A stretch of 64,000 bases of DNA from an uncultured Mycoplasmatota bacterium (GCA_949287595.1 CASEGV010000001.1:129982-193981); one strand, 5' to 3'. Counted from the stretch's first letter, positions 8,310 to 8,334 are shown. Translations and numbers: made by a program. The notes: generated from the letters alone by a model not told the origin.

Positions 8310-8334
8310 ATGGAGACTCGGTTGACGGTTTACT
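8310..8334 (-). CDS. RNAP beta-prime-like subunit, exon 2: 25-nt micro-exon encoding (L)VNRQPSLH
   Basis: A GTA AAC CGT CAA CCG AGT CTC CAT. This restores QIVL-VNRQPSLH-EYSTFAM against bacterial [19 protein letters not shown]. It is flanked by the intron 5 terminal G and the intron 4 P1. Confidence 0.7.

Follow-up and report, generated by a model that had tools for sequence, protein, structure and literature searches.

The 25 nt at positions 8310-8334 of the window (the whole 64-kb stretch analysed here, which came from a metagenomic assembly and has a GC content of 28%) appear to be an internal exon lying between two group I introns, and on the level of sequence our analysis confirmed this observation, which had first been made in a sequence-only reading of the same DNA. 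Very probably, we are dealing with one RNA polymerase beta'-like gene that carries five td-like group I introns, in which the two introns around the 25-nt exon would both be removed and would have arrived by independent homing. The gene occupies 10350..2274 on the minus strand and consists of six exons and five related td-like group I introns. The features around the micro-exon are as follows:

9218..10350, minus strand: exon 1, 1133 nt, placed by the ORF list and the splice model; it ends ...AUCGUACU, leaving CU of a Leu codon.
8335..9217, minus strand: intron 5 (site A), a group I intron of 883 nt, with its omega-G at 8335.
8468..9067, minus strand: intron-5 ORF, 199 aa, endonuclease-like, in the P6 loop.
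8334..8310, minus strand: exon 2 (the micro-exon), 25 nt, AGUAAACCGUCAACCGAGUCUCCAU, that is, A GUA AAC CGU CAA CCG AGU CUC CAU.
7096..8309, minus strand: intron 4 (site C), a group I intron of 1214 nt, with its omega-G at 7096.
7198..8190, minus strand: intron-4 ORF, 330 aa, homing-endonuclease-like, in the P6 loop.
6869..7095, minus strand: exon 3, 227 nt, reading EYSTFAMKLRIHEDYTIHFPIQVCEPLNADFDGD...HET(L).

The gene model was built with three rules: a U before each 5' splice site, a G at each intron end and a reading frame that is kept throughout. It gave exons of 1133, 25, 227, 745, 336 and 861 nt and introns of 883, 1214, 1201, 435 and 1017 nt, and the joined exons form an ORF of 1108 codons that is free of internal stops; each of the five 5' exons ends in U and each of the five introns in G. 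Read on the minus strand, 8310-8334 is AGTAAACCGTCAACCGAGTCTCCAT, with ...CATTCTACAG (ending ...CTACAG, the G at 8335) as its 5' neighbour and AATGATTACGAGTATTTGTGGAGAC... as its 3' neighbour. Exon 1 ends in ...GTACT and leaves two codon bases over; addition of the 25 nt and of exon 3 (from 7095) restores the frame and yields LVNRQPSLHEY. Exons 1, 2 and 3 together read ...IVLVNRQPSLHEYSTF...NADFDGD in frame (...KQIVLVNRQPSLHEYSTF...NADFDGD for the join of 10350..9218, 8334..8310 and 7095 onwards), and omission of exon 2 leads to a frame shift and immediate stop codons. The content of the micro-exon, the third base of a CUA Leu codon followed by VNRQPSLH, was therefore as previously proposed, being borne out by the in-frame splice product. 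The proposal that it starts right after the terminal G of intron 5 (..CUACAG) also held, with the G at 8335. It should be noted that this junction can be slid by 2 nt (AG on both sides) with no change in the mRNA; only in the register first proposed does a U precede the 5' splice site while a G ends the intron. A fold of 8385..8262 contained the terminal hairpin of the upstream intron and then the P1 hairpin (z = -3.66; 0 of 200 shuffles as good).

The identity of the host gene was examined from both sides of the insertions. The product of the upstream ORF (10350..9196) begins like the N-terminus of RNA polymerase beta' and loses this similarity after ...EKQIVL, and the frame from 7095 downstream takes up the motif with EYSTFAMKLRIHEDYTIHFPIQVCEPLNADFDGD. 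Pfam PF00623 (RNA_pol_Rpb1_2) matched residues 364-429 of the spliced product (E = 1.3e-19), a region that spans both exon-2 junctions, and in a phmmer search the spliced product KQIVLVNRQPSLHEYSTFAMKL aligned gap-free to Thermus beta' through both of them. Introns 5 and 4 are 25 nt apart; both interrupt the conserved segment VL-VNRQPSLH-EY, which lies a short way upstream of the catalytic loop NADFDGD. The Rpb1_2 domain was the only one found by Pfam in the full spliced product, and phmmer of the C-terminal 411 aa against PDB gave no match. Megablast of the locus against GenBank phages gave no match either, and tblastn against the same phages found only beta' genes that are 23-35% identical, which is too distant for use as intron-less comparators.

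Closer relatives were available in other collections. From ENA, JGI, Logan and IMG/VR we collected 104 related loci (human-gut and some other gut contigs, up to about 402 kb; designated by L numbers below), and a large protein collection contained hundreds of relatives in three length classes. Proteins of ~380-388 aa end right after VL (P0001, P0004, P0120), which indicates an intron at the intron-5 position; those of ~403-435 aa break off slightly further on, and those of ~705-750 aa continue uninterrupted (P0011, for instance, reads ...KQIVLVNRQPTLHEYSIFAMKLRI...NADFDGD). Continuous homologues read IVLVNRQPTLHEYS across both intron sites, which is what the sequence-only reading had expected of intron-less genes. 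An exact search for the 25-mer in IMG/VR returned no match, because the nearest relatives differ at synonymous sites.

The short proteins could also be taken at face value, since gene callers give the exon-1 ORF as a separate protein of 380-388 aa. On such a reading there would be no RNA splicing at all: the gene would have been fragmented by free-standing endonuclease genes, and the beta' fragments would assemble, as for the split beta/beta' of phiKZ-like phages. In jumbo phages, the multisubunit RNA polymerases are known to be divided over several polypeptide chains. However, the 25-nt piece could not be expressed alone, since it lacks a start codon and codes for eight residues of an invariant motif. 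In addition, exon 3 lacks a proper start or ribosome-binding context and offers only an in-frame TTG, whereas the insertions have a covarying group I core, start after U, end in G and carry guides complementary to the flanking exons. We consider the fragmented-gene reading extremely improbable and return to a spliced gene, whose introns are described below.

Intron 5 has the anatomy of a group I intron. Its P1 pairs CGUACU of exon 1 with GGUACG of the internal guide (IGS; 9205..9200), with U.G at the splice site. P4 is UUGCUGG/UCAGCAG, P6 (UUGAAUUUA/UAAAUUCAA) closes the ORF loop, P7 pairs GACUAU (8452..8447) with AUAGUC (8401..8396), and P3 is UUUUGU/ACAAAA. P2, P2.1, P5, P8 and a P9 with a GAGA loop are also present, and a 12-bp terminal hairpin precedes the final ...ACAG. 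On an alignment of 11 site-A variants, RNAalifold recovered P1, P2 and P4-P9 unaided; for P8, its 11 pairs had zero compensatory changes and are without covariation support. RNAalifold also paired the 5' strand of P3 with the region of the 3' splice site (columns 80-87/289-296), which we discounted as artefactual: the program has no means of representing a pseudoknot, and the true P3 forms one with P7. P10 is weak in the window (AGU/ACU, 3 contiguous bp), compared with 5 bp (AGUUA/UAAUU) in the type of L001. The intron-5 ORF matched phrog_681 'endonuclease' (E = 1.3e-7) and is 73% identical to the copy of L001; it had no Pfam match even at E <= 10 and no recognised catalytic motif. As a separate observation, the site-A intron of L026 (about 7132-8028) is a chimera, with a 5' part of the L001 type and a terminal hairpin of the window/L010 type, which points to recombination between intron variants.

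For intron 4, blastn breakpoints placed the ends within ~10 nt, and the exact ends were set by the reading frame and the U/omega-G rules. The last 8 nt of exon 2 (GUCUCCAU) pair over 8 bp with the IGS GUGGAGAC (8292..8285), with U.G at the splice site, so that the earlier assignment of these 8 nt as the 5' strand of P1, with 8285-8292 as the partner, was upheld. The guide octamer (GTGGAGAC at 8285-8292, minus strand) is the sole copy in the 64-kb window on both strands; shuffles would give 0.46 copies window-wide, which puts the chance of one lying no more than ~50 nt from the end of the exon at about 2e-4. P10 is formed by GUAUUU (8298..8293), immediately 5' of the guide, which pairs with GAAUAC of exon 3 over 6 bp. 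The core includes P4 (UUGCUGG/UCAGCAG), a 16-bp P6 that closes the ORF loop, P7 (GACUGU, 7155..7150; ACAGUC, 7131..7126) and a P9 hairpin of 7 bp (CUUAAUU/AAUUAAG). The intron-4 ORF matched PF07460 (NUMOD3; 33.4 bits, cutoff 20.4) and PF08722 (TnsA-like N-terminal endonuclease; 33.1 bits, cutoff 26.5), the latter by our reading a domain that would have a PD-(D/E)xK-type fold. It also matched the phrog_15427 endonuclease, and over its full length it is 37% identical to the ORF of the L004 site-C intron.

Variation at site C was examined in filled and empty alleles. P1 occurs in three types, namely GUCUCCAU/GUGGAGAC in ten loci, ACUCCAU/GUGGAGU in L078 and L082, and UUGCAU/GUGCAA in L094, and P10 likewise in three (GAAUAC/GUAUUU in the window, GAGUAC/GUACUU in the L004 type, and GAAUAU/AUAUUU in L026, L078 and L082). 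In all site-C-filled alleles the exon ends are complementary to the allele's own guide, and the changes in P1 and P10 are all compensatory. Empty alleles are of twelve kinds and drift freely, some having a CAC His codon by which the splice-site U is lost.

Assignment of the whole family to group I was based on shared elements and on covariation. The five minus-strand insertions share UUGCUGGAA, AAUCAGCAG, UCAACGACU(A/G)U and A(U/C)AGUCU, the last two of which we take to resemble closely the core of the T4 td intron. Introns 4 and 5 both have P1 with U.G, an omega-G, a P3/P7 pseudoknot, P4-P6, P9 and td-like R/S elements. The td core elements ...UAACGACUAU... and ...GAGAUAUAGUCU... are close matches to UCAACGACUAU and AUAUAGUCU in the window introns. 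A motif harvest of 105 loci yielded 469 intron cores, 126 of them distinct. The cognate P3 had at least 5 bp in 121 of the 126 distinct cores (mean 5.76, vs 3.95 for non-cognate strands), and P7 showed a perfect compensatory G-C/A-U association. For the P3/P4/P7 pseudoknotted core of 55 distinct cores, 88.9% of cells were paired, compared with 26-44% in slid controls; there were 126 double-change cells (44 +/- 6.5 in shuffles) and a covariation score of 0.264 (0.095 in shuffles), and 0 of 500 shuffles reached the observed values. All six P3 pairs covary in this set. Rfam RF00028 had no match in the window at the gathering score, nor in 5000-11000 at E <= 10. The same model matched ORF-less members of the family in L094 with 46.5, 45.6, 36.9 and 24.4 bits (E = 6e-9 to 0.03; gathering score 50). 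Thus, the lack of a match in the window can apparently be put down to the reach of the model and to the large ORF inserts, which measure 600-1000 nt in introns 4 and 5. Matches of snoRNA and miRNA families of Rfam in the window were dismissed as chance.

The T4 td intron belongs to subgroup IA2, has P7.1/P7.2 and P8, and loops its endonuclease ORF out of a peripheral helix. The window introns resemble it in the last respect, their endonuclease ORFs also being looped from a peripheral helix. On the other hand, intron 4 has neither P7.1/P7.2 nor P8, and most members of the family are much smaller than td (158-200 nt without an ORF). P8 is a standard core helix of group I introns; with only ~18 nt between the P7 strands of intron 4, no P8 is possible there, whereas the L004-type intron, likewise at site C, has kept a P8 of 7 bp. 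It might be supposed that intron 4 of the window is decayed and splicing-defective through loss of P8, and that the gene is broken or needs a protein cofactor or maturase; in line with this, the exact variant occurred in no other locus. However, it has a perfect P1 (8 bp) and a perfect P10 (6 bp), both fitted to the exon bases of its own allele, its 330-aa ORF is intact, and its P7 has a compensatory G-C. Furthermore, 21 of the 126 distinct cores (54 instances), that of intron 4 included, are P8-less, with 16-23 nt between the P7 strands, which is room for P3' and J8/7 only. All variants with P7 = GACUG/ACAGUC fall in this class; examples are intron 4 itself (core 7126-7155), L041 near 10775, L082 at 4566-4723, L078 and L097, and a variant seen in L013 near 9396 was found in 23 loci. 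The abundance of such cores in an essential gene argues for a working P8-less sub-family. We regard decay of intron 4 as improbable; a sub-family of td-like group I introns without P8 seems to recur within this essential gene.

The distribution of the two introns among the related loci was then compared. The site-A intron was present in about 88 of the ~95 loci with a readable site and absent in 11, comprising seven continuous loci, L005-7 and L094. In the first-pass table, 77 loci had the site-A intron and no site-C intron, eight had both, one (L094) had only the site-C intron and seven had neither, and L005-7 had an insertion at a third site, after NRQP. In the later allele table, L064, L078, L026, L067 and L082 were reclassified as carrying both introns, and the 25-nt exon was present in nine loci (window included), with the same segment split into 10 + 15 nt in three. 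Pairs of close relatives gave a consistent picture: L003 and L004 have an identical exon-1 protein and 25-mer, which continues into exon 3 (GAATATTCG) in L003 and into an intron in L004, while L010 and L060, 93-98% identical to the window in nucleotide sequence, keep intron 5 and lack 8309..7096 as well as introns 3 and 1. Since all four occupancy states of the two sites exist, introns 5 and 4 are gained and lost independently of each other, which fits the earlier claim of two independent homing events.

A further trace of mobility may lie in the exon bases beside intron 4. The flanks are AGTCTCCAT, intron, GAATACTCG in the window and TCATTACAT followed directly by GAGTATAGT in the empty allele of L010. 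The differences between the filled and the empty allele are synonymous and lie within ~10 nt on each side of the intron (8310-8319 and 7087-7095, compared with L010 8033-8052), and the remainder of the micro-exon is identical between the two. Such differences are the expected signature of a very short co-conversion tract, which would end inside the micro-exon. The window bases beside intron 4 are exactly those that pair with its guide. This specific match also speaks against an assembly chimera of co-occurring strains with and without intron 4 as the source of the double-intron layout. A metagenomic origin and the lack of intron 4 in the nearest genomes, L010 and L060, could raise that suspicion; however, both introns also occur in eleven other contigs, of which eight have the 25-nt exon and three the split into 10 + 15 nt, and these contigs stem from various samples and assemblers (IMG/VR, ENA, Logan and JGI). 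A chimera is in our view very unlikely.

From the anatomy, collinearity, allele and covariation data above we infer splicing, endonuclease activity and homing along the following lines. Each intron would leave the pre-mRNA by the standard two-step transesterification initiated by guanosine. For intron 5, CGUACU of exon 1 would pair with the guide GGUACG and the G at 8335 would be the end of the intron. For intron 4, GUCUCCAU of the micro-exon would pair with GUGGAGAC, GAAUAC of exon 3 would be aligned on the adjacent GUAUUU as P10, and the intron would end with the G at 7096; ligation would then give the continuous ORF of 1108 codons. Each of the two introns, with an endonuclease-like gene of its own in the P6 loop, would spread independently by homing among co-infecting phages, which would account for presence and absence in the population and for the short synonymous exon tract beside intron 4.

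It had been suggested that the double use of such a short exon may impose an order on splicing, and the anatomy gives no indication of this. Bases 1-3 (at most 6) of exon 2 would serve P10 of intron 5 and bases 18-25 P1 of intron 4, with ~11 nt free between them. Because these segments do not overlap, the pairing scheme forces no order, and in the local fold both neighbouring helices form together. Skipping of exon 2 would not be favoured, because the bases beside the guide of intron 5 do not match exon 3. Taken together, the sequence data supported the first interpretation in its main points.

The remaining introns of the gene are listed below:

5668..6868, minus strand: intron 3, a group I intron by its core motifs, absent in L010 and L060.
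4488..4922, minus strand: intron 2, 435 nt, with putative boundaries taken from the U/G rules and the SGYLTRQ reading.
3135..4151, minus strand: intron 1, a group I intron with an HNH+NUMOD3 endonuclease ORF (4039..3224) and P1 GCCUU/GAGGC, absent in L010 and L060.

With the raw blastn breakpoints, introns 3 and 1 would not end in G; this was resolved by allowing synonymous differences beside the sites. Their junctions were confirmed by empty alleles, the HETL-NG junction (intron 3) being continuous in 88 loci and the LGL-KHGG junction (intron 1) in 55. The intron-2 site was filled throughout the loci examined, and a search of intron 2 for a canonical 5' guide sequence was negative; a 6-nt complement of the 5' exon end (GACCUU vs AAGGUU) adjoins its 3' splice site. 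The first bases of this intron (AGUGGUGUU) mimic the start of the 3' exon (AGCGGAUAU), and therefore gene callers extend the upstream ORF as ...SGV. The endonuclease gene of intron 3 falls into two ORFs (6724..6218 and 6105..5788): its N-terminal part shares 38% identity with the intron-4 ORF, its C-terminal part has a TnsA-like domain, and the whole is probably a decaying homing endonuclease gene. Intron 1 (target GGCCUU-AAA, guide GAGGC, ALGL-KHGG) has a close relative in L047 at 8475-9606, and also in L014 near 8526, which sits elsewhere in the same gene (AACCUU-UAAAU, CEPL-NADFDGD); this suggests ectopic spread of the intron-1 lineage to a look-alike target.

Still shorter candidate exons were identified in other members of the clade. 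In L082, L026 and L067, a third intron after ...AAACCGU splits the 25 nt into 10 + 15 nt. For L082 (exons 4556-4565 and 4724-4738), the spliced reading VVLVNRQPTLHEYS was verified; the split lies near 8029 in L026 and near 4784 in L067, and the middle intron has 158 nt in L082, compared with about 180 nt in L026/L067. In L082, P10 (8 nt, 7/8 paired) and P1 (7 nt) together use up the whole 15-nt exon. The most divided locus described here is L047 (IMGVR_UViG_3300035283_000164, 367 kb), in which 8036-10468 reads as exons of 75, 12, 17, 11, 23, 52, 38 and 32 nt and introns of 175, 160, 1132, 198, 173, 167 and 168 nt, or about one intron per 30 coding nt; all eight exons are preceded by G and end in U, and the spliced translation is collinear with the window product. 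L014, L043 and others have a similar layout. A predicted exon of 25 nt is therefore not exceptional in this clade, where relatives have exons of 10, 11, 12, 15 and 17 nt. The sequence-only reading knew of no comparably short internal exon between two group I introns in a phage gene; this stands for the phage literature, in which we found no report of exons so short, and does not hold for the relatives, with their exons of 10-17 nt.

A broader interpretation is offered tentatively, as a possibility that we rate at somewhat under even: the beta' active-site region may be a saturated intron hot-spot, with at least 4 sites in 25 nt and at least 8 introns in ~260 coding nt in one lineage, where some exons of 10-17 nt would be fully used by P10 and P1 and would force ordered or cooperative splicing, and where ORF-less ribozymes of 158-175 nt, some introns of the family being P8-less, would be at work.

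Judging from the gut source and the size of its relatives and from its own GC content, the window most likely derives from a human-gut jumbo phage of the 'Jug' clade. The relatives are human-gut contigs of 230-402 kb, which, with 28% GC for the window, is in line with Jug phages, that is, jumbo gut phages of 360-402 kb and 27-30% GC with Bacteroides or Phocaeicola as predicted hosts (PMC12880540; PMC12363816). This clade, to which >90% nucleotide identity to curated Jug genomes would assign a sequence, was described in a bioRxiv preprint in 2025 (PMC12363816) and in Sci Adv in 2026 (PMC12880540), with 2513 group I introns in 136 of 139 genomes (about 18.5 per genome), and stand-alone HNH, PDDEXK, GIY-YIG and LAGLIDADG endonucleases; metatranscriptome reads backed splicing of 37 of 76 introns (PMC12880540). 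The paper treats interruptions of terL, nrdD and DNA polymerase genes and uses RpoC as a marker; its main text has nothing on rpoC introns and does not contain the word 'exon', and micro-exons, the hot-spot and P8-less introns are not described there (PMC12880540).

Several known systems are comparable in part. Organelle micro-exons between group I introns are documented down to 1 nt, the case being placozoan mitochondrial cox1, in which a 1-nt micro-exon sits between two group IB introns, with RNA-seq evidence, and is explained by a second intron inserting beside the first (PMC5436844). As in exon 2, an internal exon far below the normal P1+P10 footprint lies there between two independent group I introns; the cox1 case differs in being organellar, of subgroup IB, 1 nt long and documented by RNA-seq. 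Among phages, genes with several introns include Twort orf142 and the polymerase and terminase genes of Bastillevirinae, with up to three introns. In orf142 of Staphylococcus phage Twort, three group I introns and exon skipping were reported (Landthaler & Shub 1999, as related in PMC3073962 and PMC11878797). As far as that account goes, the two genes share the presence of several similar group I introns in one phage ORF and the question of cross-talk, whereas exon-2 skipping in the window would shift the frame, and introns 4 and 5 each have an endonuclease-like gene. In PhiPA3, gp210 is the endonuclease of a group I intron in a jumbo-phage RNA polymerase subunit gene and attacks the intron-less allele of a co-infecting phage (Science 2024, PMC11620839). 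Here, too, an endonuclease-bearing group I intron sits in a jumbo-phage RNA polymerase gene, although PhiPA3 has a single intron and belongs to an unrelated phage lineage. The micro-exon is a new and well-documented case of a known type of element; the richness of the clade in introns had been reported before, and the pattern is partly published. What is added is a population picture of the hot-spot in the beta' active-site motif, with chains of 10-17-nt exons and compact, sometimes P8-less introns.

These results have consequences for annotation and for the biology of these phages. Gene callers overlook such exons, and beta', a marker gene used for these phages, is mis-annotated as a fragment of ~380 aa in hundreds of database entries. 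Natural alleles with 0, 1, 2 or 3 introns in 25 nt, each with matching guides, make a series suited to studying the order of splicing, cross-talk between ribozymes, competition for homing sites and the minimal architecture of group I introns. Should the ORF-less introns of 158-175 nt or the P8-less introns splice without help, they would rank with the smallest group I introns found in nature, and the minimal core would have to be redefined. Our findings illustrate how heavily an essential viral gene can be broken up by mobile introns and yet survive: a catalytic-centre motif of RNA polymerase is encoded in pieces and would become whole only after several ribozymes have acted in succession.
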